Virus record (IMG/VR): IMGVR_UViG_3300029505_000002 | Length of the DNA stretch: 64,000 bases | From: a virus | Taxonomy: Duplodnaviria > Heunggongvirae > Uroviricota > Caudoviricetes | Strand: one strand, 5' to 3' | Part shown: piece by piece, positions 36,647 through 61,208 of the stretch | Layout: every line of letters starts with the position of its first letter | How positions within the stretch are numbered: position 1 is the stretch's first letter | The notes under the pieces: model-generated | What the model was told of the DNA's origin: nothing | Database searches by the model: none | Seen by the model: only the letters and a program-made list of their open reading frames with translations | Program-made: the position numbers and the translations under genes

Positions 36647-37450
36647 TTAGTCAAAAATTATTTCATCATTATTTTCACGATCGCTAACATAACAATTTGT
36701 TGTTACTAAATGTTTCAAATTGTTTTCTATAATATCATGAGTATTATTTGCTCTTGATATATGTAAAGTAATTATATTTTTAACATCTACACCTTTTTCT
36801 TTCATATAATTAAAAAATTTAATAGCTTCCGAATTTGATAAATGACCAAATTTACTTAAAGTTCTTAATTTGTTAGAACAATGTCTATCACTATTCATTA
36901 ACATTTCTTCATCATGATTTAGTTCTATAATAAAATTATTGCATTTCATTGCTTCTTTTTTAATAGCATTTGAAATGAATCCACAATCAGTAAGATAAAG
37001 AGTGTTTCCATTTATTCTAAAACCTAATGTCTTATGAGCATCATGGTAAGATGTAAATGGATAAAAAGTTAAATCTTTAATAGTAAATTCTTCATTTTCT
37101 TTTATTAAAACAAATTCAGCTTTATATTCTTCAGATTTTCTTCTATCTATATAAGAAAGTCTTTTTTCTTTTCTTTCCTCTTCTCCTATTAAATGTTTTT
37201 CATGTAAATAAATAGGAATATTTTTTTCCATAGCTAATCTGCCAGTCCATTTATTAAAATGATCTGTATGTTCATGAGTTATAACTATACCATCAAAAGT
37301 AACTTCTTGCATAATTTCCTCTAAACATTCTTGCATTTTAGTTTTACTTTTAAATCCTGCATCTATTAACACATTAGTATCTTTATGGTTAATCCATACA
37401 CAGTTCCCATCACTACCTGTTTGGATTACTTTAATCTTCACTTTTATCAC
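36647..37450 (-). CDS. metallo-beta-lactamase-fold hydrolase
   Basis: VLIDAGF... then ITHEHTDH (HxHxDH zinc motif). Confidence 0.6.
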   Translation of the reverse strand: MIKVKIKVIQTGSDGNCVWINHKDTNVLIDAGFKSKTKMQECLEEIMQEVTFDGIVITHEHTDHFNKWTGRLAMEKNIPIYLHEKHLIGEEERKEKRLSYIDRRKSEEYKAEFVLIKENEEFTIKDLTFYPFTSYHDAHKTLGFRINGNTLYLTDCGFISNAIKKEAMKCNNFIIELNHDEEMLMNSDRHCSNKLRTLSKFGHLSNSEAIKFFNYMKEKGVDVKNIITLHISRANNTHDIIENNLKHLVTTNCYVSDRENNDEIIFD

Positions 37451-37697
37451 TCCCTTTTAAAATTAATTCTTCTATTTCTGATAATCTTTTATATATAACT
37501 TCTTTACCATCGTATCTAGCAAAACTTGAACAATTAGATTTGATATTTTTGTCTTTAAAACATAAACGATCTGTTAATTTAACAAATGGATAATTTTCAA
37601 TGTTAAAAAAACATTTTCTACAATCTCCACATTCCTAAACTCTTAAATAGCAATCTTTATATTTAAAAATTTCTCCAACTTTATATTCTTTTTCCAT
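37434..37697 (-). pseudogene. interrupted copy of the small Cys-rich paralog family (in-frame TAG at codon 21)
   Basis: translation MEKEYKVGEIFKYKDCYLRV*ECGDCRKCFFNIENYPF...LSEIEELILKGSDKSED parallels the 41362..41610 protein (MEYKVGEVFKYKESYVLVEEGNSCENCFFNFEDYPY...ITEIEFLILKGEKE); not reported by the ORF track because of the stop. Confidence 0.55.
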
Positions 37698-37698
37698 A

Positions 37699-38010
37699 TC
37701 ATTCGCCTTTTAAAAAGCTTTTAAATTTCTTTATAGCTTCTTCTTCATTAATAGTGTAAAACAAAACTTCTATCTTATTTTTTTCTTTATCAAATCTTTT
37801 AATATAGTATTCTCTATTGGCTATATGCTCTTCGCTTTCAAACCTAATGTTATCTAAAAATAATATGCAGTAATCATTTTCGTAAGCTTGTATTCTACTA
37901 ATATCAGAATTAAAAAAATCTATATTTTCTTTACAAAAATAATTTGCTATTTTATCATATTTAGATTTTTGTAATTCTATTACATTTAATTTTCTCATAT
38001 TTCCCTCCAA
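37699..38010 (-). CDS. hypothetical protein
   Basis: 103-aa ORF. Confidence 0.4.
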   Translation of the reverse strand: MEGNMRKLNVIELQKSKYDKIANYFCKENIDFFNSDISRIQAYENDYCILFLDNIRFESEEHIANREYYIKRFDKEKNKIEVLFYTINEEEAIKKFKSFLKGE

Positions 38011-38049
38011 AATAAAAAATGAGATATAAAAATATACCTCATTTCTTTT

Positions 38050-38277
38050 TTAATTAAATTTATTACATCCGTGATTATCTTTATTTCTTTTTTTATTAGA
38101 AATACAACATAATCCTACACCGTTATAATACTCTAAAAAATCCATACATTCACCACAATCACCAATATACTTTAGTTTATTATTGCAATCTGGACATGTA
38201 GAATTCTTTTTATTTTTTCCGTGTAATTGGTAAAAGCTATATTCTTTTCCACATTTAACACATTTTAATATACTCAC
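38050..38277 (-). CDS. hypothetical zinc-ribbon protein
   Basis: 75 aa with CVKCG...CPDCN...CGEC. Confidence 0.4.
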   Translation of the reverse strand: MSILKCVKCGKEYSFYQLHGKNKKNSTCPDCNNKLKYIGDCGECMDFLEYYNGVGLCCISNKKRNKDNHGCNKFN

Positions 38278-38329
38278 TTATATAATACCTCTTAGTTAAT
38301 TTTTATTAATTAACTAAATAACATATATA

Positions 38330-39184
38330 TTAATCTTCGTCAAAATACTCTACTTCAATTATATCAATTATACATTGTAATGCTTTTTCTATTCTAGTAA
38401 GAGTTCCTTTTACAACACTTAAATCTTTTTTTATTTCTTTTTCTTCTAATCCTTCTAATATAGTAAATTGATTAGGATTTAAATGTTGTCTTATGTAAGT
38501 TATTCTTCTCATAATATTATCTATCATTTTCTTTTCATCAGGTGGATTTTTAACAGTTATTTTAGATTCATATTTAACATTATTCATAGCTTCTTCTATT
38601 TGTTTTTTACATATATCAGCATTATATACTGATTGTATATAAGGAAGTAATTTAAATAAAGAATTAGAAATCCAATAAATAGAATCTTGAAATTTCTTTT
38701 CTATTTCTGGAGAAAAAGCACCTTCATAATCCATGAATTTTTTTCTACTTTCCCAAAAGTTATCAAAGAATGAATTATACATAGCCAATTCTCCTCTACT
38801 CATACAAACTCTTAAGAATTCATTTCTTATAGATAAATAATCACAAAGATATCCATTTATAACAAACAAATTAATAAAATCCATTAAAGGTACATCTGCT
38901 TTTATTGTATTATATACTTTTTCTAAAAAAGTTTTTAAAGCTTCTTTTAATCTTGCATCATAAATATGATAATCTTTTTGATTACTTTGTTTGTATTTTA
39001 ATACTAAAAAACACATATCTATTAATCTAGTATGTTCCTTTACATACTGATTATTTGCATATCCTAAATGTACAAATATTTTATAATCTTGTTCTGTTAA
39101 AGCTTTTTTAAAATAATCATTTATAGCCTTCGTTCTTCCATCAAGAGTATTCAAATCTATTTTTTTCTTTTTTAATTTTCTCAT
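38330..39184 (-). CDS. hypothetical protein
   Basis: 284-aa ORF. Confidence 0.45.
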   Translation of the reverse strand: MRKLKKKKIDLNTLDGRTKAINDYFKKALTEQDYKIFVHLGYANNQYVKEHTRLIDMCFLVLKYKQSNQKDYHIYDARLKEALKTFLEKVYNTIKADVPLMDFINLFVINGYLCDYLSIRNEFLRVCMSRGELAMYNSFFDNFWESRKKFMDYEGAFSPEIEKKFQDSIYWISNSLFKLLPYIQSVYNADICKKQIEEAMNNVKYESKITVKNPPDEKKMIDNIMRRITYIRQHLNPNQFTILEGLEEKEIKKDLSVVKGTLTRIEKALQCIIDIIEVEYFDED

Positions 39185-39196
39185 CTATTCACTCCC

Positions 39197-39700
39197 TTAT
39201 ATCATTCTATTATATCTTTTTAACCCACTATAGCTTAATCCAAATATTCTGAAAGAATCATGGTATTTAATTGCATATAGATTTTTTAAAGAAATGCCAA
39301 ACATAAAAGATATTGTTTTTAAATAATTACCTCTAGTTGGCATTTTCATTTCTTGTAAAGTTTCCAAATCTTTCCAATTAAATTTTGTTTTAGATTTTTC
39401 TTTTTCATATATTTCTTTTTCTTCTTTTGTTAATAAAAGAAAATTTCCAGGATGATAATTAAATATATTACCATCTTTAGGTATCCATGTTGTGCCTATT
39501 ACATCTAGTCCTATATATGCTCCTATTACCATTGGTAACCACCATATTTGTTTATTTATAACAACATAGTCTTTATTATTATATCTTATAGGTTTTAATA
39601 TTTTACCACTTTTTTTATAATATAGTTGGAAATTTTTTAAATTTACTGTTAATCCTTTTTGAAAACATCTTCTTAAAATTTCAAATCTTTCTGCTGTCAT
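39197..39700 (-). CDS. hypothetical protein
   Basis: 167-aa ORF. Confidence 0.45.
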   Translation of the reverse strand: MTAERFEILRRCFQKGLTVNLKNFQLYYKKSGKILKPIRYNNKDYVVINKQIWWLPMVIGAYIGLDVIGTTWIPKDGNIFNYHPGNFLLLTKEEKEIYEKEKSKTKFNWKDLETLQEMKMPTRGNYLKTISFMFGISLKNLYAIKYHDSFRIFGLSYSGLKRYNRMI

Positions 39701-40110
39701 TTTTCAATGATATCTCCTGAAACAGTATTAACGTTTCCTTCTATTTTATCAGCTTGAACATCACCAGATACAGTGTTTACATTTCCATTAATATTACCTT
39801 CTACAACAGTTATATCACCACTTGTAGTTTTTGCATTTATTATATCACCATGAATTTCAATATTTCCTGAAATAGTAGTAGCATTTTCAACCTTAGAACC
39901 TTCTTTTAAATATATTTCTATATTTACTACTGTATTATTTTCAGTATTTCCAACTTCTTTTCCATCTATAATTATTTTATTATTGCTTATGTTTATGCTT
40001 TTACCTTTATACATTTTATCATTAATAACTATATCCGAATCTCCAATTATTTTTGCACTATTAAAATTATTACTATTAACGCTATTAATCTTTTTAGTCC
40101 ATCTAAACAT
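39697..40110 (-). CDS. bactofilin-like beta-helical repeat protein
   Basis: repetitive SGNIEIHGDIINAKTTSGDITVVEGNINGNVNTVSGDVQADKIEGNVNTVSGDI pattern typical of bactofilin/polymer-forming beta-helix proteins. Confidence 0.4.
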   Translation of the reverse strand: MFRWTKKINSVNSNNFNSAKIIGDSDIVINDKMYKGKSINISNNKIIIDGKEVGNTENNTVVNIEIYLKEGSKVENATTISGNIEIHGDIINAKTTSGDITVVEGNINGNVNTVSGDVQADKIEGNVNTVSGDIIEK

Positions 40111-40124
40111 ATTTAATCGCCTAC

Positions 40125-40637
40125 CTATACTATATTATTAATTCTATCTTCCCAGTTAGTTTTATATTTCTTATAATGTTTTAAACTTCTTACATATTTT
40201 AATCTTGTTATTTTTAATTCTTTTACAAGATCACCTTTATATGAGTTTATAGCTTTTATTGTTTGTGTTCCTATAACCCCATCAGCTTCTATACCTAAAG
40301 TTCTTTGTATATTCTTAATAGCTTTAGTTGGAGATGAATGATATAACCAATCAAACACAAATGTTTTTACATCTTTATCTTTAATCTCATTTATTCTATG
40401 AGTTTTATAAATTTTGTTATAAGCAATGCTATAAGCTTTACCTTTAGTTAATCCTTTTACATCTTTAGAATAATAGTTTGTAATGCCATATTTACTTTCT
40501 TCTATTTTGTTTTTTATATATTTTGTTCCTTCATACTTTAGAGTATTTCTGTAGATTTCATTAAAATCTTCTTTACAGTATGTTGTAAGTGATGATAATA
40601 ATAAAATTATTGTTACTAAATGTTTCAAGTTAATCAC
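40125..40637 (-). CDS. secreted protein with peptidoglycan-binding-like domain
   Basis: signal peptide MINLKHLVTIILLLSSLTTYC; LGIEADGVIGTQTIKAIN resembles the PG_binding_1 motif (LG...DG..G..T..A). Confidence 0.45.
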   Translation of the reverse strand: MINLKHLVTIILLLSSLTTYCKEDFNEIYRNTLKYEGTKYIKNKIEESKYGITNYYSKDVKGLTKGKAYSIAYNKIYKTHRINEIKDKDVKTFVFDWLYHSSPTKAIKNIQRTLGIEADGVIGTQTIKAINSYKGDLVKELKITRLKYVRSLKHYKKYKTNWEDRINNIV

Positions 40638-40863
40638 TCCCTTTTAAAATCAAAACTTCTATTTCAGAAAGTTTTTCAAAATTAATATAAGGATCTCTAC
40701 AATTAATAAATTGACATACTTCATTTTCCTTATCTGCAAAGCAACACTCTTCGCAATTTGAGCTGTACCATTCATGTACTTTGCATATAGTTCCACAAAC
40801 ATCAACTATGTCTCCTTCGCTATAAAATTTATCAGAATCATATTTTTTAATCATTTTTATCAC
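40630..40863 (-). CDS. small Cys-rich protein, tandem paralog 1 of 7
   Basis: 77 aa; shared C-terminal signature LSEIEVLILKGSD and Cys pairs. Confidence 0.5.
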   Translation of the reverse strand: MIKMIKKYDSDKFYSEGDIVDVCGTICKVHEWYSSNCEECCFADKENEVCQFINCRDPYINFEKLSEIEVLILKGSD

Positions 40864-41101
40864 TCCCTTTCAAAAACAAATATTCTATCCCTGTTATTTC
40901 TTTATAATATACATCTGTTTTATCAAGTCTAGATCTACTGCTACAAGTTAAGTTTTTTCTATAACACATTTTATTTTTCTTTTCTTCTGCAATATAAGGA
41001 TAATTCACATAATCAAAAAAACATTTTAAACATTCTCTTCCTTCTGTTACTAATATATAACTGTTTTTATATTTAAACACTTGCCCTGCTTTATATTTCA
41101 T
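40847..41101 (-). CDS. small Cys-rich protein, tandem paralog 2 of 7
   Basis: 84 aa; CLKCFF...C..C...ITGIEYLFLKGSD. Confidence 0.5.
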   Translation of the reverse strand: MKYKAGQVFKYKNSYILVTEGRECLKCFFDYVNYPYIAEEKKNKMCYRKNLTCSSRSRLDKTDVYYKEITGIEYLFLKGSDKND

Positions 41102-41113
41102 TTAATCATCTTC

Positions 41114-41365
41114 TTATATTTTTATCTCTTTAATTTTGTTAAAATTCTTTTTTAATATAAGCAATTCTATTTCGCTTATTTTTTCTATAATTATATCTTT
41201 AGCATCTATTCTATACTTCCCATCACAATTAAAATAAATTGGAGGATTGCATATTCCTTCACTATAAAAAAAACAATTGTTGCAATCATAACTTTCTCTT
41301 ACTATTAGGTAATTTTCTTTAAATTTAATTATTTCACCAATTTTAAGTTCTAATCTTTTTGTCAT
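41114..41365 (-). CDS. small Cys-rich protein, tandem paralog 3 of 7
   Basis: 83 aa; CNNCFF...C..C...ISEIELLILKK. Confidence 0.5.
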   Translation of the reverse strand: MTKRLELKIGEIIKFKENYLIVRESYDCNNCFFYSEGICNPPIYFNCDGKYRIDAKDIIIEKISEIELLILKKNFNKIKEIKI

Positions 41366-41610
41366 TCTTTTTCACCCTTTAAAATTAGAAATTCTATTTC
41401 AGTTATTTCTCTATAACATACATTTGTTTTATCTGATCTAACTTCATATTCACAAAATAAATTTTTTCTATAACATACCTTATCTTTTTTTATCAAATCT
41501 GCATAAGGATAATCTTCAAAATTAAAGAAACAGTTTTCACAACTATTCCCTTCTTCTACCAATACATAACTTTCTTTGTATTTAAAAACTTCTCCAACTT
41601 TATACTCCAT
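41362..41610 (-). CDS. small Cys-rich protein, tandem paralog 4 of 7
   Basis: 82 aa; CENCFF...C..C...ITEIEFLILKGE. Confidence 0.5.
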   Translation of the reverse strand: MEYKVGEVFKYKESYVLVEEGNSCENCFFNFEDYPYADLIKKDKVCYRKNLFCEYEVRSDKTNVCYREITEIEFLILKGEKE

Positions 41611-41875
41611 TATCTCCTCCTAATAATATTAGTCTTTCTATATCAGATAACTCTTTATATATATAAGGTCGTTTATTTAAGTTGCATGGTATACCGCTAC
41701 AAGAGATTTGGTGAATATTAAAGTAACAATTTTCACACAAACTCTTATCTTTATCAATTACTTGCTTTTCAATTTTTAAAATTACATCTTCAAATTTAAA
41801 AAATTTATTTGTTTTTAACATTTTTCTTTGTTTGTCTAAATATACAATGTGATTATAAAGTGTTTCAATTTTCAT
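41600..41875 (-). CDS. small Cys-rich protein, tandem paralog 5 of 7
   Basis: 91 aa; CENCYF...C..C...LSDIERLILLGGD. Confidence 0.5.
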   Translation of the reverse strand: MKIETLYNHIVYLDKQRKMLKTNKFFKFEDVILKIEKQVIDKDKSLCENCYFNIHQISCSGIPCNLNKRPYIYKELSDIERLILLGGDNGV

Positions 41876-42095
41876 CTTTTTCCTCCATTAATACCATTGC
41901 TTCTATAGGAGACATTTCTTCAAAAATAATAGGTATTTTTCCACCTCCATAATAAAAGCATTCTTTTCCATTTGGCAAATCACAACTGAACCCATTTATA
42001 AAAAAACAATTATCACACGAATCTTGAATTTTAACTTTTAAATAAACATTTTTATATTTAATAATATTTCCTGGTTTAAAATCTTCATCATTCAT
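41865..42095 (-). CDS. small Cys-rich protein, tandem paralog 6 of 7
   Basis: 76 aa; CDNCFF...C..C...MSPIEAMVLME. Confidence 0.5.
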   Translation of the reverse strand: MNDEDFKPGNIIKYKNVYLKVKIQDSCDNCFFINGFSCDLPNGKECFYYGGGKIPIIFEEMSPIEAMVLMEEKDEN

Positions 42096-42303
42096 TTTTC
42101 GCTCCTTTCTTTTTTAACATGAGATATTCTATCTCTGATATTTCTTCAAAATGATCTTGTACATCTTTCGTTAAATCTAAACAATGAGACCTTAGTTTAT
42201 ATGGAGCTTCACAATATTTTTTATATATTTTTTCAAAATAACATCCTTTACATATTCCTTTAACAAGTTTTAAACGAACATCATTATAATTAAATATTCT
42301 CAT
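42088..42303 (-). CDS. small Cys-rich protein, tandem paralog 7 of 7
   Basis: 71 aa; CKGCYF...C...C...ISEIEYLMLKK. Confidence 0.5.
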   Translation of the reverse strand: MRIFNYNDVRLKLVKGICKGCYFEKIYKKYCEAPYKLRSHCLDLTKDVQDHFEEISEIEYLMLKKKGAKNE

Positions 42304-42336
42304 ATTATCCTCCTAATAGAAAAATGCCTAGTTGGA

Positions 42337-44181
42337 CTAGGCATTTATATCTATTATATATTTATTTTTTACTTCTTCCAATTTTGCTTCATCATCAAAT
42401 GGTTCATCTTTAAATCTATTCATAAGGAATTGTTTAAAATACTCTATACTAGGATGAATTTTAGTAAATCCTTGATGAGCAGATAGTCTACAATCACCTT
42501 TTCTATTATAGAATTGAAAACAACTCATATAATGATCATATATAATATCGTATACTATTGATAAAGGTTTATTAGTAAACGCTCTCCCAATTCTTCCTAC
42601 ACGTTGGACCGTAGAATTTCTTTCTCTTGTAGAAAACAAAAGGTATTCTATATTTAAACGATCTATAGAAAGTCCTTTATCAAAAACATTTGTCGTAATT
42701 AAAATTTTAACTTCATTATTATTTGCATCATCTATTAATTGATTTCTTTTAACAGAAGATAATTCACCAGTTATAATTCTAACTACTTGTAAATCTTCTT
42801 GTCCTTCTATATAGTCTGACTCAAACCATTCTTTGTTTTGAAGTTTTTCTATTTTATTAATAACTTTAGTTATTTCTTTTTCTTTATATTCTTGTAATTT
42901 ATCAGAATAGTGTTTTTGTATAGTGGATAGTCTAGTGTGTCCCTTCTCATAACTATTTTTTTCTTTTCTTGGTACAACTTTAAATATATCAGTATTATTA
43001 ATTTCTTCTATTTGTTTATGATATTCTTTTATAATCTTTTGATTATATTTTTCAACATCTTTAACAATAGAAGGTCTTAGTTTTAATAATAAAGTTTTAT
43101 AATATTCGTTTACCATTGTTTTTTCTTTACAAATAGCTAATTGACTATCATTATTATTTAAATGATACAACATTATATTTGTAATTTTATCTATTACCTT
43201 AGGATTATTATAATATTCATCTACTACAGTCCTAAAATCTACATCATTATTCAGATTATACTTTTCGAATAATTCATCATCTTTGATAAAAATAGGTCTT
43301 AGAATAGGAGTAACCATACTTCCAGCATCTACTAAATCTTTTCTATTAGCTTTATGTATAATAGGTCCAACTGATTCAGTTATTAGGAAATCCATTCCAT
43401 CATCTCTATATGGTGTTCCTGAAAGTCCTAATTGATATTTTGGAACAAGTTCTTTAACTATCTTTTGAATCATATCACAAGAAGCTATTTGTACTTCATC
43501 TATTATTAAAAAAGAAATAAACTTAGAAAGTTTTTTTAATAGTTCTATATCTTTAGAAAGGGTTTGTGCTGTTGCAATAATGATATCTTTATTTTCTATA
43601 TCTCTATTTTTGCCTTGAATAATTCCTATTCTACTATCATGAACTTTGGTAAATTTATGTATAGTTTCTAAGAATTGTTCTGCTAACAAATACATATCTA
43701 CAACTATTAAAGTTTTTACTTTAAAATGACAAGCAATATTTATTGCCATATAGCTTTTACCTGCAGCAGGTGGAGCAGACAAAATACTATAGTTCCATTC
43801 ATTGTTTATTACGTCTTTAATAGCTTGTTCTTGTATTTTATCTCTTGGTTTAGCATGACAAGCCATTCTTGCTGGAACACATATTCTTTCGTCAACTATT
43901 TCATCAACTTTTAACCCTAAGTTATTAACAACATCGACAAATACTGTTCTATTAGCTTTTAATACTTTAAAAACAGTTATCCCATTTTTTAATTTTTCTA
44001 CTTTATATGTTTTTACATATTGTGTTTCTGTTATATAACCTGTTATTTTTTTTCTTTTTACTGCTTTATCATATTTAGGATTTGGATAAACACATTGCTT
44101 ATCCAAATACCTTTGCACAGTAATTCTTTCAAAGTCACCATAACAATGAATTTCAAGATATTTACTTCTTACTATCTTCAA
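42337..44181 (-). CDS. SF2 helicase (DEAD/DEAH-like; UvsW/XPB-type)
   Basis: Walker A APPAAGKSY; motif II LIIDEVQ; motif III LGLSGTP; motif VI VQRVGRIGR. Confidence 0.7.
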   Translation of the reverse strand: MKIVRSKYLEIHCYGDFERITVQRYLDKQCVYPNPKYDKAVKRKKITGYITETQYVKTYKVEKLKNGITVFKVLKANRTVFVDVVNNLGLKVDEIVDERICVPARMACHAKPRDKIQEQAIKDVINNEWNYSILSAPPAAGKSYMAINIACHFKVKTLIVVDMYLLAEQFLETIHKFTKVHDSRIGIIQGKNRDIENKDIIIATAQTLSKDIELLKKLSKFISFLIIDEVQIASCDMIQKIVKELVPKYQLGLSGTPYRDDGMDFLITESVGPIIHKANRKDLVDAGSMVTPILRPIFIKDDELFEKYNLNNDVDFRTVVDEYYNNPKVIDKITNIMLYHLNNNDSQLAICKEKTMVNEYYKTLLLKLRPSIVKDVEKYNQKIIKEYHKQIEEINNTDIFKVVPRKEKNSYEKGHTRLSTIQKHYSDKLQEYKEKEITKVINKIEKLQNKEWFESDYIEGQEDLQVVRIITGELSSVKRNQLIDDANNNEVKILITTNVFDKGLSIDRLNIEYLLFSTRERNSTVQRVGRIGRAFTNKPLSIVYDIIYDHYMSCFQFYNRKGDCRLSAHQGFTKIHPSIEYFKQFLMNRFKDEPFDDEAKLEEVKNKYIIDINA

Positions 44182-44797
44182 CTTTTTCTTCTTCCTTTAA
44201 TATTTTAGGAATAATTCTATTAGCTTCCATATCAGTAAGAATAAAAAGTGTTTCTTTTATCATTGTTTCTGGTGTAACTTCTTTTTCTTCATCTATTTGA
44301 ACTTGAATATATTCATATACATTTTCAGTTAAAAGTTTTAATAAATTAATAATATCTTTTTCTGCCAATGTATTGATATTTTCTTCTTTTTTTAAAAGAT
44401 CTATAAAGTTATTAATATTATGTTCTAATTTATAAGAATAATAATCTTTTTTATTATCTTTTCTTAACCAATTAACATAAAAAAACATTAATTTATCATC
44501 TTTTATTTTTGTTTCTATTTTATAATTGTATAAAGGTTCTCCTGTTAACATATTAACTGCTTTTAAAAAACCAGTGATTACTCCGACAGGATTTTTTGTT
44601 ATTTCTGCTACTTTGTTTTCATATACTTGAATATAGTCATATAGAGTTTTAGTTCCTACAACTTCTATTACATCATCAATTATTATACTTTTGTAAAAAT
44701 CATTAAAGTTACTATAATTAGCAAATTCAGTATCTATATAATCAAAAATTTCTTTTTTAATTGTTTCTTTATTAACTACAAATATTTGTTTTTTCAT
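44162..44797 (-). CDS. hypothetical protein
   Basis: 211-aa ORF. Confidence 0.45.
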   Translation of the reverse strand: MKKQIFVVNKETIKKEIFDYIDTEFANYSNFNDFYKSIIIDDVIEVVGTKTLYDYIQVYENKVAEITKNPVGVITGFLKAVNMLTGEPLYNYKIETKIKDDKLMFFYVNWLRKDNKKDYYSYKLEHNINNFIDLLKKEENINTLAEKDIINLLKLLTENVYEYIQVQIDEEKEVTPETMIKETLFILTDMEANRIIPKILKEEEKVEDSKK

Positions 44798-44799
44798 TT

Positions 44800-45312
44800 T
44801 TATCTCCCTTGTGTCATAAATGATTTGAATTCTACATCATCATTTGCTTCTGCAATTAATCTTTTATTATATAAGCTTATTTGTTCTTTTAAATTATGCA
44901 TTATCAAATACATTTCAGCTTCGTTTAAATAAATTGAATACATTCCCTTTCCTGTTGTTGATATTAGAGAAAATTTACATTGAGCATTACCATTATAATC
45001 GCTAAATTCTAATTGAATGTTTTTTGGATCATTAGAAGTTAAATGTGGCATTTTTATATTTGTATAAATTCCATGTAATGCCTTTTCAATTCCTAATATT
45101 ACTTGTGCTGCTTCTGTATCAGAAAAGTAAGTAATCATTTTATTATCATAATCAAATTTAGCTTTTCTATCTGGAGTTACTCCTATTTGTTTTGCCATTG
45201 TAAATAGTAATACACATTTTTTAGTTAAAGTTGCTTGTAATACTGTTCCATTGTTTCCTGGTTTACAGATTTGAATTTGTGGAAATCTTAAATTTGTGTT
45301 ATCATTTGCCAT
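44800..45312 (-). CDS. hypothetical protein
   Basis: 170-aa ORF. Confidence 0.45.
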   Translation of the reverse strand: MANDNTNLRFPQIQICKPGNNGTVLQATLTKKCVLLFTMAKQIGVTPDRKAKFDYDNKMITYFSDTEAAQVILGIEKALHGIYTNIKMPHLTSNDPKNIQLEFSDYNGNAQCKFSLISTTGKGMYSIYLNEAEMYLIMHNLKEQISLYNKRLIAEANDDVEFKSFMTQGR

Positions 45313-45396
45313 GATTTAATCACCTCGATTGAATTTTTATTTAACTTTTTTATTATAACTTTTATAGTAAAAAAATACCAATTTGTTGGAGGGAAA

Positions 45397-46500
45397 ATGA
45401 AGAAAGTAGATTTAATTTATGACCCTAATTTTCCACCTAATACCACTCTTGTAAAAGACTTTCCAGGTGTGGTTAGGAAAAAAGGAGAACAATTAAAAAC
45501 TTTAATTGATGAAATAGAATTGAATAGAACTTCTTCCTCTATAGCTAATGCAAAAAAGACATTCGATTATAATATGGTATTTATAACTGAAAATTCAGAA
45601 ATACCTAATGGAATGTATTTAAATGATAAAACTAATAATTATTGGGTAGGTTGTAGTGATTTTTCTACTTTACCTTCTAATACAGATACATTAGATATAG
45701 GAACAAGAATTACTATTTATAATAAAACTTATGAACTTAGAGAAGTTGATGGAATTAAAATATGGTGTCAAACATTTGGTTTAAAACCAAAATTATTCTT
45801 TGACTTTTTTGAATTTGTTAAAGAAGATACTGTGTTAACTAATAAAGGATTTGGCAATTCAGATATTACTTTAACAATTAACAATGCTGAAAGAAAAGAA
45901 CCTTTGTTACCTTATATAACTACTAAGCAACAAAATAAAATAATTACTAATATGTCTTATATCAACGACAAAACATTTACATTAACTGCAACTTTTAAAA
46001 ATATTAAAAGAAGTTTTGAAGATAATACTGTTATAGATATAAATCACAAATCAGTAATATATCATATCAAAGATGAATTTGCTAATATACATACTGGTAT
46101 TTGTTATGATAAAAGTAATAATTTATTTTATTTTGTAGGAGAAGAGGTATTTCCTATAGGTATATTCTTATCTGAAAATAAGATATATCAAATAACACTT
46201 CAATATATTAATAAGAAGCTAAATTTAATTATTGATAACGAACTTATCAAAACATTTGAATTAGATCTTGATGGATTGAAGTTATTATTTGCAGTAGGAA
46301 ATGATAATATGTTTGGTAGATATGCTACAGGTTCTTTTGAAGTAGCAGATTTAACTTTATTTAAAGAAGTGTTAACAAAAGAAGAAATTATGTGGTTATA
46401 TGTAAATCCTAGAAACTGGACTTTTTATACACATAATTCTTATCTTGATTTATCATTAGAAGAAAAAATTAAGTTAAAAAAACTATTAAAAGAAGATTAA
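45397..46500 (+). CDS. hypothetical protein with C-terminal LamG/concanavalin-like jelly-roll
   Basis: only sizeable plus-strand gene in the central region; GGAGGG RBS; C-terminal LKLLFAVGNDNMFGRYATGSFEVADLTLFKEVLTKEEIMWLY is typical of LamG-like lectin folds. Confidence 0.45.
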   Translation: MKKVDLIYDPNFPPNTTLVKDFPGVVRKKGEQLKTLIDEIELNRTSSSIANAKKTFDYNMVFITENSEIPNGMYLNDKTNNYWVGCSDFSTLPSNTDTLDIGTRITIYNKTYELREVDGIKIWCQTFGLKPKLFFDFFEFVKEDTVLTNKGFGNSDITLTINNAERKEPLLPYITTKQQNKIITNMSYINDKTFTLTATFKNIKRSFEDNTVIDINHKSVIYHIKDEFANIHTGICYDKSNNLFYFVGEEVFPIGIFLSENKIYQITLQYINKKLNLIIDNELIKTFELDLDGLKLLFAVGNDNMFGRYATGSFEVADLTLFKEVLTKEEIMWLYVNPRNWTFYTHNSYLDLSLEEKIKLKKLLKED

Positions 46501-46502
46501 AA

Positions 46503-46516
46503 TTCCGCATGCGGAA
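46503..46516. repeat. copy 4 of palindrome TTCCGCATGCGGAA (plus orientation), immediately after the stop of the plus-strand gene
   Basis: identical 14-mer at 46503..46516. Confidence 0.7.
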
Positions 46517-46526
46517 AAATGAATTA

Positions 46527-46550
46527 GGCAGGTATTAACCTGCCTTTTTA
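46527..46550. terminator. bidirectional terminator between convergent genes
   Basis: aggcaggtattaacctgccttttt hairpin followed by a T-run. Confidence 0.55.
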
Positions 46551-47959
46551 ATTGTATGTGCTTTAACTCTTTTATCGCTATAACCTTCAATAATACCTTC
46601 TTCCATATTTCTTTCAGTAAGTACAAAATCATATTGAACTATATTATTAGGTATATCTCTTTCGTAACTAAAATATCCATCTGTGATGTTTATAACTCCT
46701 ATATATTGATTTTTATAAAAATCTTTTATCCATTCATGAAGATAGGAAACATCAGTTCCTCCAGATGAATGAACTTTGAATTTTAACAAATCTTTTATAT
46801 CTTTAATATTCTGATGATAATGTTTTTCTTCAACTTTACAAGATGACCAATATACAACATCTAATACAGTTGTATTTTTGTTTTTAGATAAAAAACCATT
46901 TAGCATTTCGTAACATTTCTTAAGTTCTTCATCACCTATCGAACCTGATACATCTACTGCAACAAGAATCTTTTTACCAAATTCTTTAGTTTTTCCTTTA
47001 AACACAACTTTATTAGATTGACGTGTTCTACTTGCTCTCTTATAAGATTTAACATAAGTTTGAGCTATTTCTTTGCTTATTATTCTTTTTAAATCTAACA
47101 AATTTAAAAAATCATCTTTTTTAGTAATTCTTTCTTTATGTCTAATAATATTACCTTCTGAACTTGAATAATTTACACTAGATGATATTTCTCTTTCGAT
47201 ATTATTTATTTTAGAACTCATAATAGAATCTAAATCATCTTTTGAAAGTTTAGCAGATTTTCCATTTGAATCTTGTTCATTCTTTTTGTTAAAATCAGAA
47301 ACTGATTGATTAGACATTTCTTCAGATGCATTATGATCATCTATACAGTTACCCAAACTATAATTATTAACTTCTTGTAATTTATCACAATTGTCTAAAA
47401 ACCATTTAAATAATTTAGGTTCTGGTGGAGCATCATTCAGATCAGAAAAGGGTAATTGTTTGCCTGCTATTTTAGTTAAATTATCATAATTAATTAAATC
47501 TATTTTATACTTAGAAAAGTTATTTGAATTAATGTTTAACATTTCAAATAACATAGAGTTACAATAATAATCTTCAACTATATTAGCTAATTGAGGACTT
47601 ATCTTAGTTTCTTGTTTCATTCTTTCAAAATGATAAAAATAGTTATGTAATAATTCATGGAATATGACAAATAATAATTCTTTATCATCAAAACCATATT
47701 CTGCTACTTTGTTAAAATTGATAACTATTTTAATTCTTTCATTTACATAATCAGGATAAGTATATGCTAAAGCTTCTTTGTGTTTTTCATCTACATTTTC
47801 TATATCACATATTGTTAACAACATATTAATAAAAAAAGGATATGTTTTAGAATTAAATAATATTAATTTATTCAACAAATCATTTACTTCAAGATGATTG
47901 TTTGGATTAGCTTCATATACTTTTCCTCCCATTTTTAAAGAAATTTTCATTTCATTCAC
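46535..47959 (-). CDS. vWA-domain protein with N-terminal HExxH metallopeptidase-like domain
   Basis: FHELLHNYF (HExxH) in the N-terminal half; LVAVDVSGSIGDEE is a MIDAS DxSxS motif of von Willebrand A domains. Confidence 0.6.
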   Translation of the reverse strand: MNEMKISLKMGGKVYEANPNNHLEVNDLLNKLILFNSKTYPFFINMLLTICDIENVDEKHKEALAYTYPDYVNERIKIVINFNKVAEYGFDDKELLFVIFHELLHNYFYHFERMKQETKISPQLANIVEDYYCNSMLFEMLNINSNNFSKYKIDLINYDNLTKIAGKQLPFSDLNDAPPEPKLFKWFLDNCDKLQEVNNYSLGNCIDDHNASEEMSNQSVSDFNKKNEQDSNGKSAKLSKDDLDSIMSSKINNIEREISSSVNYSSSEGNIIRHKERITKKDDFLNLLDLKRIISKEIAQTYVKSYKRASRTRQSNKVVFKGKTKEFGKKILVAVDVSGSIGDEELKKCYEMLNGFLSKNKNTTVLDVVYWSSCKVEEKHYHQNIKDIKDLLKFKVHSSGGTDVSYLHEWIKDFYKNQYIGVINITDGYFSYERDIPNNIVQYDFVLTERNMEEGIIEGYSDKRVKAHTIKKAG

Positions 47960-48182
47960 TCCCTATATTTTTTAAATATTCATAATCAGCATTTAATTGT
48001 TTTTTATATTTTTCTTTATAAGTAAAATCAGCCACCTGCATATATTTGTATATACAGGTAGCTACTTTTTTACTTAGTTCTTTATCAAATAGATATTCAT
48101 GATCTTGATAAAGATTTAACATATTAGAATTTTTCTTTTCTATAACAAAATGATTATTCTTAAATCCATATTGATAATACAT
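47952..48182 (-). CDS. hypothetical small protein between the vWA and AAA genes
   Basis: 76-aa ORF with overlapping stop/start to neighbours. Confidence 0.4.
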   Translation of the reverse strand: MYYQYGFKNNHFVIEKKNSNMLNLYQDHEYLFDKELSKKVATCIYKYMQVADFTYKEKYKKQLNADYEYLKNIGSE

Positions 48183-48184
48183 GA

Positions 48185-49495
48185 TTATCTACCGCTGTTT
48201 GCTAATCTAATTCCTTCTGCAAAGTTATCAAAAACTTTCTTTAGTTTTTTATCAGTTTTGCTTCCTTTAACACCAGCTTTGTAAATATAGTTCGCAAAAT
48301 TAGTTTTCTTTTCTCTAGCAACAGATTCAGAAAATTGTTCCTCAAAAGCTTTATTCATTTCATTAAAGAAAGCAGCAAGCATAGCTTCATTGTTAACAAA
48401 TAGTTTAAATATTTTATCAGCATATTTTTCTGCATATTTAAAATCTTTAAGAATATTGTCTTTTACTAAATATTTAGTTCTAATTAATATTTCTCTTTCT
48501 TTTCCTTTAATATCAAATGGATGTCCTTGTCTATCTTTAACTACATAATCTGGTGTTGTTAGTCCTTCGTTATCAACAATTTCTTTTTGTAAATCTAATG
48601 TATTAACTTGTTCTAATAAAGTAAGTTTATCAGTAATAGCTTTTAAAGTTCTATCAGTAAAGAAATAAGAACCAAATAATACAGCATCAGTTTTACAGTT
48701 ATTATATGTCATAGGTATTTTTTCAATTAATTCCATATCTTTCCATCTATTGTTAAGAAGATTCCAAGAACCAAGTTGAGAATCTTGTTCTAATTCCTTA
48801 ACAGCTTCGTGATCAATTATTTTATTCATATCAAGTAAATCAACTAAATCTCTAATTACTGGATGATAATTCTTTTCTTCCATGAATTTTTGAATATCTT
48901 CTTTGTTTGGAACCCATTCAATAAATATTTGTCTTCTTCTAAGAGCTGAGTCAGAGAAATCTATATTACTTATGTAAGAATCGCCATAGTTAATAGCCGT
49001 CATAATGTATAAATTCTTAGCAATTACACCATCTAATCTCTTTTCAAGAAGTCCAAATAATAAAGGTGCAATATCTGCAGAACTTCTCGCATATTCATCG
49101 CAGAAAAGAAGATATTTTTTATCTGGATTTTCTAAAATTTCTTTAAAAATTCCAATGTTGGCAAACTCTACAGATTTATTTATCTTCTTGTATCCAGTTT
49201 CTAAGTTTAACAAAGTTTCTTCTGATTTCTTTCTTCCTGTTTTTACGTCTGTTTCATCAACTATAATAGGTAATCTAAAATCTTCAGCTGCCATTCCTTG
49301 CATTCTAAGAGTTACAAACTTGTCGATTCCTAATCTTGAGTCTTTTGCTATTTCTTCTACTAGAGTTGTTTTTCCTGATCCTGAAGGCCCTAATAAAGTA
49401 ATTGTAGTATAAGGTAACATTCTAACTATCTCTCTAACTAATACATCTTTTCCATCATTAATAATAATTTGTCCATATTGTCCTTTCATTGCCAT
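48185..49495 (-). CDS. MoxR-like AAA+ ATPase (AAA_5 / CbbQ / CobS-like)
   Basis: Walker A LLGPSGSGKTTL; Walker B LLFCDEYARS; sensor-1-like MTAINYG; immediately upstream of the vWA partner. Confidence 0.65.
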   Translation of the reverse strand: MAMKGQYGQIIINDGKDVLVREIVRMLPYTTITLLGPSGSGKTTLVEEIAKDSRLGIDKFVTLRMQGMAAEDFRLPIIVDETDVKTGRKKSEETLLNLETGYKKINKSVEFANIGIFKEILENPDKKYLLFCDEYARSSADIAPLLFGLLEKRLDGVIAKNLYIMTAINYGDSYISNIDFSDSALRRRQIFIEWVPNKEDIQKFMEEKNYHPVIRDLVDLLDMNKIIDHEAVKELEQDSQLGSWNLLNNRWKDMELIEKIPMTYNNCKTDAVLFGSYFFTDRTLKAITDKLTLLEQVNTLDLQKEIVDNEGLTTPDYVVKDRQGHPFDIKGKEREILIRTKYLVKDNILKDFKYAEKYADKIFKLFVNNEAMLAAFFNEMNKAFEEQFSESVAREKKTNFANYIYKAGVKGSKTDKKLKKVFDNFAEGIRLANSGR

Positions 49496-49579
49496 AACAT
49501 ATCACTCCTTTTAATTTAATTTATTTTTATTATATTTTGTTTAAGGCATTTCAAAAAATTAGTAATAAAAAAAGACAGT

Positions 49580-49939
49580 TTATTTTGCACTGTCTTTGCT
49601 TATTGTTAAAAATTCAGCTTTAAATTTTCTAAGTATATCCTCAAATGTTCTTTCAAATTCATATATTACAAACAAAGTTGCTGTTTTAGTATGATATCCT
49701 TGATATTGTTGATTATTTACAAGATTTCTCATACTTCTATGTATACACCAGATTATATTTGTTGACTTATGATTATCAAACATATATTCATGAGGTCCTA
49801 CTTCTGTAGCAGATTTATCTAAATCCAAATATTCATTCATAGCAAATTTTCCTTTATAGAATTTAATTCCTGCTTTTTTCTTTCCTTCTATAACGCTTGG
49901 TACTAGCCAATATGTGTTGCCTTTTCTATAAATTTTCAT
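49580..49939 (-). CDS. hypothetical protein
   Basis: 119-aa ORF. Confidence 0.4.
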   Translation of the reverse strand: MKIYRKGNTYWLVPSVIEGKKKAGIKFYKGKFAMNEYLDLDKSATEVGPHEYMFDNHKSTNIIWCIHRSMRNLVNNQQYQGYHTKTATLFVIYEFERTFEDILRKFKAEFLTISKDSAK

Positions 49940-50658
49940 TTTTGCCCTCCTATGTTAAAAAAAATATTATCATTTGACTCTACTATTAAATCTTTAAAAG
50001 TTTCAAATAATTTTGTATGTTTTAATAATTTAGCACTTAAAGAAAAAGTTTGTCTCAATTGATTTCCGTTACAATATTTTATTACTTTGTTTCTTAATTC
50101 TTTTAAAAATTCTTCATCATTTAAAAATTTAAATGGTACTTCTTCTATCCCTACTAATCCTCTTCCAGAAACAATATCTACATAATCTGATAAAATTTTT
50201 TTATCACATTTCATTTCTTCAGAAATAGATTGATATGCCAAATGAATATTTTCTAATACCCATTTTTTATCATTTAATGGCAATCTAATTTTCTTTTTTT
50301 CTTCATTAGGCAGTTCTCCAAATAAATATTTTAATTGATTTAAAACTTTAAAAGTGTAATCGAAATCTTCTTTATATATATAAACATAAGCAAAACATAT
50401 TAAACTATGCAAATTATTTTTTATACTATATTCTATTCTTTCTATTGATTCTTGAATTTTATATTTCATATCCTCCATGAATAAAAGTTCGTGTAGTTCA
50501 ATAATATTAGTTAAATGATAAGCTGGAGTATCTTTAACTTTTACTATTGAACAACTAATTGGATTAGTATTATGAATAATTATTCCTATTTTTGCAGTTT
50601 CTATATACAAATGATTATTATCATCTATTCTAAAAGTTATTTTGATTTTTGCCATCAA
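49936..50658 (-). CDS. hypothetical protein
   Basis: 240-aa ORF. Confidence 0.45.
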   Translation of the reverse strand: MMAKIKITFRIDDNNHLYIETAKIGIIIHNTNPISCSIVKVKDTPAYHLTNIIELHELLFMEDMKYKIQESIERIEYSIKNNLHSLICFAYVYIYKEDFDYTFKVLNQLKYLFGELPNEEKKKIRLPLNDKKWVLENIHLAYQSISEEMKCDKKILSDYVDIVSGRGLVGIEEVPFKFLNDEEFLKELRNKVIKYCNGNQLRQTFSLSAKLLKHTKLFETFKDLIVESNDNIFFNIGGQK

Positions 50659-61132: not shown

Positions 61133-61208
61133 TGGTGCTTGCTACAGGAATTGAACCTGCTACCTATTGCTTACCATGCAATTGCTCTACCTATTGAGCT
61201 AAGCAAGC
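61133..61208 (-). tRNA. tRNA-Thr (anticodon GGU)
   Basis: manual fold: acceptor GCTTGCT/AGCAAGC, D-arm GCTC-AATAGGTA-GAGC, anticodon stem ATTGC/GCAAT with loop ATGGTAA, T-arm GCAGG-TTCAATT-CCTGT, discriminator A, CCA encoded; 76 nt. Confidence 0.7.

Follow-up and report, generated by a model that had tools for sequence, protein, structure and literature searches.

Small host-interaction genes that are expressed early, lie in tandem, vary in copy number and include dispensable copies are known from several viruses: K3L amplification in poxviruses, the multigene families (MGF) of African swine fever virus (ASFV), gp37-60 of phage SPO1 and the Tre genes of Twort-like phages are all of this kind. 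In large phages, the variable regions of otherwise conserved genomes are enriched in uncharacterised genes and in defence and anti-defence genes (PMC12028318). Here we describe a tandem array of seven small cysteine-rich genes, with an eighth, solo copy nearby, in a 64,000-nucleotide stretch of a Caudoviricetes virus (IMG/VR virus record IMGVR_UViG_3300029505_000002), the whole of which we call the window. The eight copies are paralogs, and the set of subtypes present changes between phages whose surrounding genes are nearly identical. We tentatively read the array as a shuffled set of small binding proteins, stabilised by zinc, that would serve host takeover or counter-defence, a role suggested by the evolutionary pattern and by the position of the genes.

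The array occupies positions 40630-42303 on the minus strand, where seven co-oriented open reading frames (ORFs) of 71-91 aa follow one another; the window has a GC content of 23-30%, and nearly all of its genes lie on this strand (coordinates are collected in Table 1). We assigned the subtype letters used here, and in the order of transcription the genes are A, B, D, E, G, F and C. A hidden Markov model (HMM) of the family recovers exactly eight places in the 64-kb window, with E-values between 1e-13 and 1e-28, and DNA repeats of 53-109 nt connect the copies at the nucleotide level. Together, these results put paralogy far beyond chance. Pairwise identity among the paralogs is 26-57%. The first-pass annotation, made from the letters alone, had proposed seven consecutive, translationally coupled genes of this size, and the gene structure bears this out. 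Adjacent genes overlap by 4-11 nt, with a 12-nt gap as the single exception, and every start codon in the array is preceded by a Shine-Dalgarno sequence of the GGAGG or GGGAG type. The Shine-Dalgarno sequence of each next gene sits within the conserved tail codons of the gene before it, so that the codons for …L-K-G-S/E/G-D… (AAAGGGAG or GGAGG) also serve the next cistron. The same junction, with …ILKGSD codons carrying the Shine-Dalgarno sequence and then a GTG start codon, precedes both the peptidoglycan (PG)-binding gene that follows the array and the metallo-beta-lactamase (MBL) gene that follows the solo copy. Selection on the RNA as well as on the protein probably constrains part of the C-terminal signature. 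The last gene, C, probably starts at the ATG at 40854, as it does in relatives, and would then encode 74 aa.

We then compared the array with that of related phages. Between the window and L001, L002, L004 and L007, the flanking genes are 96-98% identical at the nucleotide level, whereas the content of the array differs. The window and L004 both read A B D E G F C, L001 reads A B D E H C J, and L007 reads A B F C M K. L002, a contig from a Fusobacterium sp. metagenome-assembled genome (MAG) with about 10 copies, reads A B D E G F H C K, with F split. The slot of the solo copy is the extreme case. It holds a pseudogene of subtype N in the window and intact genes elsewhere, of subtype I in L002, L004 and L007 and of subtype L in L001, and it shows either no match or a match of 67-77% beside an MBL gene that is 96-97% identical. 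L011, a more distant syntenic phage, has two copies, neither of them upstream of its MBL gene. L010, a 65-kb Logan contig (SRR13622814), has at least 11 copies, a number that rises to as many as about 17 when thresholds are relaxed; they lie at L010:5000-12200, scattered among other small genes, at a locus that differs from the array of the window and is upstream of a block syntenic with window positions 53.5-60.4 kb. A comparison of copy number, proposed as a check by the first-pass annotation, thus finds the array neither invariant nor single-copy. Searches of deposited phages (megablast and tblastn), IMG/VR and the GTDB representative genomes returned no close relatives.

Single copies can be recombinant as well, with the joins of the chimeras falling in conserved motifs. 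Gene H of L001 consists of the N-terminal half of G (100%) joined at CFF to the C-terminal half of H (96%), protein P0025 is A joined at EEIS/PIE to the tail of B (100%), and copy F of L007 has an E-like N terminus. In L002, a transposase insertion splits copy F into fragments of 37 and 40 aa; the transposase (L002:10845-12281, on the reverse strand of that locus) has 478 aa and matches phrog_506 at 137 bits, with no Pfam hit. The sequences of orthologous copies are nevertheless under purifying selection: the pooled ratio of non-synonymous to synonymous polymorphism (pN/pS) is 0.20 (51 synonymous and 49 non-synonymous changes), against 0.14 for the flanks. Since orthologues are conserved while copies are swapped and chimeric, the diversity of the array is the product of old paralog divergence and of cassette gain, loss and recombination, not of fast point substitution. 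The description of the family as rapidly diversifying is therefore right for gene content, where swaps, chimeras, loss and an insertion-sequence (IS) insertion are all seen, and wrong for sequence. Dispensability of single copies is shown by the pseudogene, found in three samples, and by the transposase-split copy in L002.

What the copies share is a scaffold. Across 33 clade members, four cysteines, in a CxxC pair and a C-x4-9-C pair, are invariant together with an F, an E and an L; the invariant alignment positions include C24, C27, F29, C46 and C53. In a 74-sequence alignment of the wider superfamily described below, C28, C31 and C47 never vary, and conservation at C39 and F33 is 90% or more. 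The motifs proposed in the first-pass annotation survive with some loosening. The two further cysteines are those invariant over the 33 members. C(E/D/K)NC(F/Y)F stands as a cysteine pair, with middle residues that vary more widely (CLKC, CKGC and CEEC also occur) and F, Y or C at the next position, giving CxxC(F/Y/C)F. The ending (I/L)(S/T)(E/D)IE.L.LK is present in the relaxed form [ILM][ST]x-I-E-x-[LM]-x-L, in which the final K is not universal. Entropy falls to 0.92 bits at CxxCFF and to 0.93 bits in the C-terminal helix, its lowest values, and is highest in the loops between the cysteine ligands (2.0-2.6 bits), which also vary in length. The N terminus, the inter-cysteine loops and the net charge change from paralog to paralog, and the isoelectric points (pI) of the window copies span 4.4 to 9.1. 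A conserved scaffold with such varied loops and pI points to different partners rather than to one common ligand.

AlphaFold2 modelled copy E with a predicted local distance difference test score (pLDDT) of 79 when given the clade alignment; with the 74-sequence superfamily alignment, copy G reached a pLDDT of 88.4 and a predicted template modelling score (pTM) of 0.76. The model of copy G runs from a beta-hairpin through the CxxC knuckle to a short second hairpin that bears the third cysteine, a third strand and the C-terminal helix. Because all four cysteines are invariant, we infer a zinc-stabilised Cys4 scaffold. The sequences of the array proteins contain no membrane segments or signal peptides.

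The family matches nothing curated. By hmmscan against Pfam and NCBIfam, none of the eight copies has a hit near any cut-off, and the same is true of members of the broader superfamily against curated families. The copies match no PHROG family, and in PADLOC six copies have no hits, and the single hit of copy F, to Csx21, is insignificant (15 bits, E 0.005). No sequence-profile or fold similarity was found to any chain in the PDB, a set that includes many known anti-defence proteins, nor any similarity to known DNA-binding zinc ribbons. The structure and profile searches thus lead to no known housekeeping family. Foldseek against BFVD gave weak matches (E 2e-4 to 2e-2, template modelling (TM) score about 0.55-0.6) to small proteins from uncultured phages, none of them characterised; two come from a single phage genome. 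In the literature, we found only general precedents for the motif or for similar arrays.

Sequence searches nonetheless place the array family, which the first-pass annotation did not recognise, as one clade of a large phage superfamily that has no family name in Pfam, NCBIfam or the PDB. The earlier view was correct in that no curated family matches, but the family is not an orphan. A word-indexed search returned only 32 clusters, none of which has a name, on contigs of up to 207 kb, one of which is labelled as a Fusobacterium sp. MAG. An exhaustive HMMER search with a clade profile gave 664 representatives at E<=1e-3, of which 36 passed E<=1e-10, and the matches cover profile positions of about 4-65. 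The common core is the hairpin, CxxC(Y/F)F, the second cysteine pair and the final strand. Many members are singletons of 60-70 aa of the form MERKIGEVFEY.G.KLKVVE..C..CYF…C…G.C…R.D.K.VIFKEV; others, of 120-430 aa, contain 2-5 tandem repeats of the module with acidic Q/E/P-rich linkers, and a further group of 155-165 aa carries the module at the N terminus, fused to DUF6378. Only phrog_33085, of unknown function, partly captures the module: broader members match it at 1e-3 to 5e-8, and the window copies do not. The family is found only in phages, elsewhere too in early/replication or accessory regions. In a temperate phage, relatives adjoin dUTPase, DUF2400 and PolA, others lie among small accessory genes of a siphovirus-like contig, and a genome sometimes has 2-3 copies. 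We also looked to the fused domains for a function, and this route was dropped: no characterised or solved relative turned up for either DUF6378 or the C-terminal domain of P0071-type proteins, and the matches of P0213 in deposited phages are confined to its DUF6378 half. The proposal of a small cysteine-rich family in a mobile element is upheld, in that this is a multigene Cys4 family in the replication module of a large phage, its zinc type being a prediction.

The eighth copy had been described as inactivated by an in-frame TAG, and this was confirmed. Apart from that single TAG, at codon 21, the stretch 37434-37697 translates as a full-length family member, and no start codon lies downstream of the TAG. 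L008 and L009, short European Nucleotide Archive (ENA) contigs from two other samples, carry the same TAG and in addition a TAA, the result of a GAA-to-TAA change within the conserved LSEIE motif. Since the same TAG recurs with a second stop in other samples, the solo copy is a true, decaying pseudogene common to at least three assemblies, neither a sequencing error nor a recoded codon. We considered stop-codon recoding (code 15, with TAG as sense), since the genome is rich in AT and phage-like, and rejected it. Gene density is normal under the standard code, and 11 minus-strand ORFs, those of the helicase and the PG-binding protein among them, end in TAG, which is therefore a normal stop codon here; the tRNAs of the window are for Trp, Asn, Ser and Thr only, with no suppressor among them. 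Database protein P0015 has Gln at the TAG position, which is an artefact of gene calling under code 15, as contigs L008 and L009 carry TAG and TAA. Reading TAG as Gln in the public gene calls of these two contigs is an annotation artefact able to mask pseudogenes.

Several of these results lead us to favour a repertoire of binders. The scaffold is fixed while surface and charge are diversified; array content is polymorphic in otherwise near-identical genomes; each subtype is under purifying selection although single copies are dispensable; the distribution is phage-only; the pattern published for variable regions of large phages (PMC12028318) points the same way; and there is no housekeeping match, whether to a curated family, a solved structure or a defence component. 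If this is such a repertoire, the eight genes would encode small cytoplasmic proteins on one zinc-stabilised scaffold, and the paralogs would be co-produced from one operon-like unit in the early/replication region of the phage. Each would bind a different macromolecule of the host or of a competing element. The repertoire would be re-assorted between phages by recombination at conserved motifs and gene junctions, and the junctions may serve as homology tracts for the exchange of units. As the tail of a cassette carries the ribosome-binding site of the next gene, units could be gained, lost or swapped without breaking downstream expression. A broader proposal, which we regard as doubtful, is that the Cys4 hairpin module of about 60 aa is a phage-specific, evolvable binder scaffold, and that arrays of cassettes carrying ribosome-binding sites, with recombination joints in their motifs through which phages exchange complete units and shuffle N-terminal and loop halves, supply combinatorial inhibitors of host immunity.

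The surroundings of the array bear on these proposals. The window corresponds to the part of a large phage genome devoted to replication and nucleotide metabolism, with genes for a ribonucleotide reductase, helicases, a UvsX-like recombinase, a primase-helicase and a PolIII-alpha-like polymerase. The host is probably a Fusobacterium, as suggested by the bin label of one MAG, the sole support for this assignment. The first-pass annotation had placed the array between a superfamily 2 (SF2) helicase and a gene pair for a PG-binding and a bactofilin-like protein. Domain searches confirmed the helicase and supported the PG-binding (endolysin-family) domain, which is borderline in Pfam and matches phrog_315, an endolysin family, at 76 bits. 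The bactofilin label was not sustained: the 137-aa neighbour, next after the PG-binding gene, has no Pfam hit at E<=5 and no PDB sequence hit, and its one match is phrog_3163, of unknown function. Among the flanks, the helicase diverges most, with 86-90% nucleotide identity to the relatives against 96-98% for the other flanks, and in PADLOC it shows generic SF2 similarity only. In L001:7175-8764 and L002:7174-8763, it is called as 529 aa, followed by a separate ORF of 86 or 63 aa. No helix-turn-helix (HTH) or Aca gene adjoins the array, and a scan for sigma-70-type promoters around it found nothing above a shuffled background. A terminator scan detected the hairpin at 42322..42346 (RNA fold -19.2 kcal/mol, z = -4.4). 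Across five related phages, among them the distant L011, the loop alone varies and the stem stays unchanged. The hairpin has no Rfam match, and no known RNA was found in the region; it may be a terminator- or attenuator-like element or a 5' stabilising hairpin.

Table 1. Features of the array and its neighbourhood in the window
Feature	Coordinates	Strand	Length	Remarks
SF2 helicase (ResIII/DEAD/Helicase_C)	42337..44181	-	614 aa	directly upstream of array
Hairpin	42322..42346	-		11-bp stem and U-rich tract; at helicase stop codon, just upstream of gene A
Array gene A (first copy)	42088..42303	-	71 aa	own GGAGG Shine-Dalgarno sequence
Array gene B	41865..42095	-	76 aa	8-nt overlap with A
Array gene D	41600..41875	-	91 aa	longer N terminus; 11-nt overlap with B
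Array gene E	41362..41610	-	82 aa	11-nt overlap with D; first AlphaFold target
Array gene G	41114..41365	-	83 aa	4-nt overlap (ATGA) with E; second AlphaFold target
Array gene F	40847..41101	-	84 aa	12-nt gap to G
Array gene C (last copy)	40630..40863	-	77 aa from GTG	tail overlaps start of PG-binding gene
PG-binding protein	40125..40637	-	170 aa	hydrophobic N terminus; downstream of array; coupled to copy C
Solo copy, subtype N (pseudogene)	37434..37697	-		TAG at codon 21; 3' end overlaps start of MBL-fold hydrolase gene
MBL-fold hydrolase	36647..37450	-		coupled to solo-copy slot

The fold of the MBL hydrolase is secure (63 bits; phrog_392 at 134 bits). PF23023, the anti-Pycsar protein Apyc1, is listed for its orthologues in L001, L002, L004, L007 and L011 in precomputed tables only; neither hmmscan (E<=5) nor phmmer against the PDB reproduced the match, and the identity is tentative. 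Were it true, a cyclic-nucleotide-degrading anti-defence enzyme would adjoin the solo copy. Near the MBL gene of L011, at L011:14266-19274, lie extra genes for an ANT-domain protein, for an endonuclease of the EcoRV family and for an adenine methyltransferase of the D12 class. The last two form a phage-borne restriction-modification pair in the same variable neighbourhood.

Other features of the window stand apart from the array. The PolIII-alpha-like polymerase is encoded by two minus-strand ORFs, at 27975-29225 (416 aa) and 29149-31785 (878 aa), with a 77-nt overlap. Both match phrog_405, at successive parts of the profile, and could represent a split polymerase, a frameshift or a programmed event. 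A different small protein, of 75 aa with about 10 cysteines, is encoded at 38050-38277 on the minus strand; it has weak hits to Zn_ribbon_8 and to a double zinc ribbon, lies outside the array family and is 96-97% conserved in relatives. The sole sizeable plus-strand gene nearby, at 45397-46500 (367 aa), is 98% conserved in relatives; its product matches nothing in Pfam or PHROG and has no relationship to the transposase of L002. A three-tRNA cluster (Trp-CCA, Asn-GTT and Ser-GCT) and a separate tRNA-Thr-GGT lie at 35272-35516 and 61133-61208 on the minus strand. In a megablast search of window positions 30000-50000 against deposited phages, only the tRNA-Asn matched, at 91% to the tRNA-Asn of Synechococcus phage S-RIM8.

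The main rival to a repertoire of binders is that they are zinc modules which bind nucleic acid and take part in replication, recombination or gene regulation of the phage, for example as accessory factors of the helicase or as sequence- or structure-specific DNA or RNA binders whose paralogs recognise different sites. We judge this unlikely. The array lies directly downstream of a helicase in a replication/nucleotide-metabolism module, the module can occur as 2-5 repeats per protein in the manner of zinc-finger arrays, it is fused to DUF6378, and in temperate phages it clusters with dUTPase, PolA and single-stranded DNA (ssDNA)-binding genes. The divergence of the helicase is compatible with co-evolution. 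However, acidic proteins (pI 4.4-4.9, net charge -5 to -8) make up half of the copies, no basic patch is conserved, and the linkers of the multi-repeat proteins are strongly acidic. Known DNA-binding zinc ribbons show no similarity, and copies that are individually dispensable and differ between near-identical phages would be unusual for core replication factors. The coupling of copy C to the PG-binding gene and of the solo copy to the MBL gene, through one conserved junction, raises a different idea: the proteins may be partners, regulators or inhibitory subunits of the coupled enzymes, with the array as a store of spare or alternative regulators. The solo slot is indeed found upstream of the MBL gene in five relatives. 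Yet L011 has its MBL gene without an upstream family copy, and in the window and two other samples the solo copy is a pseudogene while the MBL gene is intact at 96-97% identity. The subtype in the slot is swapped freely among I, L and N beside an almost invariant MBL gene, and for five of the seven array genes the only coupling partners are other array genes. We therefore find this idea improbable.

The variable content, the chimeras and the phage-only distribution would be equally expected if the proteins served superinfection exclusion or competition between phages and satellites, with incoming related phages or parasitic elements as targets. Many exclusion proteins have membrane segments or signal peptides, which these proteins lack, and we give this explanation a similarly small chance. 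Finally, the genes might be non-functional or selfish remnants of repeated duplication, whose proteins have no role. In favour, one copy has decayed to a pseudogene and an IS has inserted into one orthologue. Against this, pN/pS is 0.20, seven reading frames are intact with their Shine-Dalgarno sequences, and the four cysteines, F, E and L are invariant across 33 sequences; the superfamily, moreover, has at least 664 clusters. We consider it very improbable that the genes are mere remnants.

A shuffled repertoire for takeover or counter-defence remains our preferred explanation, and several points weigh against it. Neither the family nor the superfamily includes a member of tested function, no anti-defence protein among the solved structures searched is similar, and the argument is one of guilt by evolutionary pattern and position. 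The site in a replication module beside a helicase and the fusion to DUF6378, which is associated with nucleotide metabolism, fit phage DNA or RNA transactions equally well. No positive selection was seen among orthologues, in a small data set of about 100 substitutions, so the classic signature of an arms race is missing. Early expression is assumed, the promoter scan being at background, and zinc binding is predicted from cysteine conservation alone.

If the proteins are host- or defence-directed binders, the array and its superfamily of at least 664 clusters would make up a new fold class of phage inhibitors. If the repertoire is combinatorial, the superfamily would be a large untapped source of anti-defence or host-takeover proteins. 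At least 14 natural subtypes, together with natural chimeras, would help to map specificity. Fusobacterium, the probable host, is medically relevant and has few characterised phages, and determinants of takeover or evasion would be useful in the design of phage therapy. The module merits definition as a family: it occurs commonly in phage metagenomes from the gut and mouth, and annotation pipelines currently miss it.

How does the array compare with what is already known? The folds of the K3L, MGF, SPO1 and Tre proteins are unrelated to those of the array. The accordion model of gene amplification calls for near-identical, recent copies; the array paralogs are instead old, at 26-57% identity, and each is conserved. 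Lar-type restriction alleviation proteins are alike in size, in having four cysteines in two pairs and in their location in phage early regions. The accessory and anti-defence islands of the Schizotequatrovirus type likewise combine a conserved backbone with a few variable regions that hold small uncharacterised genes, and whole gene sets are replaced there by recombination (PMC12028318). Unlike those islands, whose genes are unrelated to one another, the array consists of one paralogous family, and none of its members was identified as a known anti-defence gene. The superfamily, including phrog_33085 and A0A8S5P714 (UniProt/BFVD), shares the module and is phage-borne, often with several copies per genome; the window clade alone adds the C-terminal helix (I/L-S/T-x-I-E-x-L-x-L) and the arrangement as separate genes in tandem. 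As a kind, the variable array of small, paralogous accessory genes carried by a large phage is known; what is new is the protein family itself.

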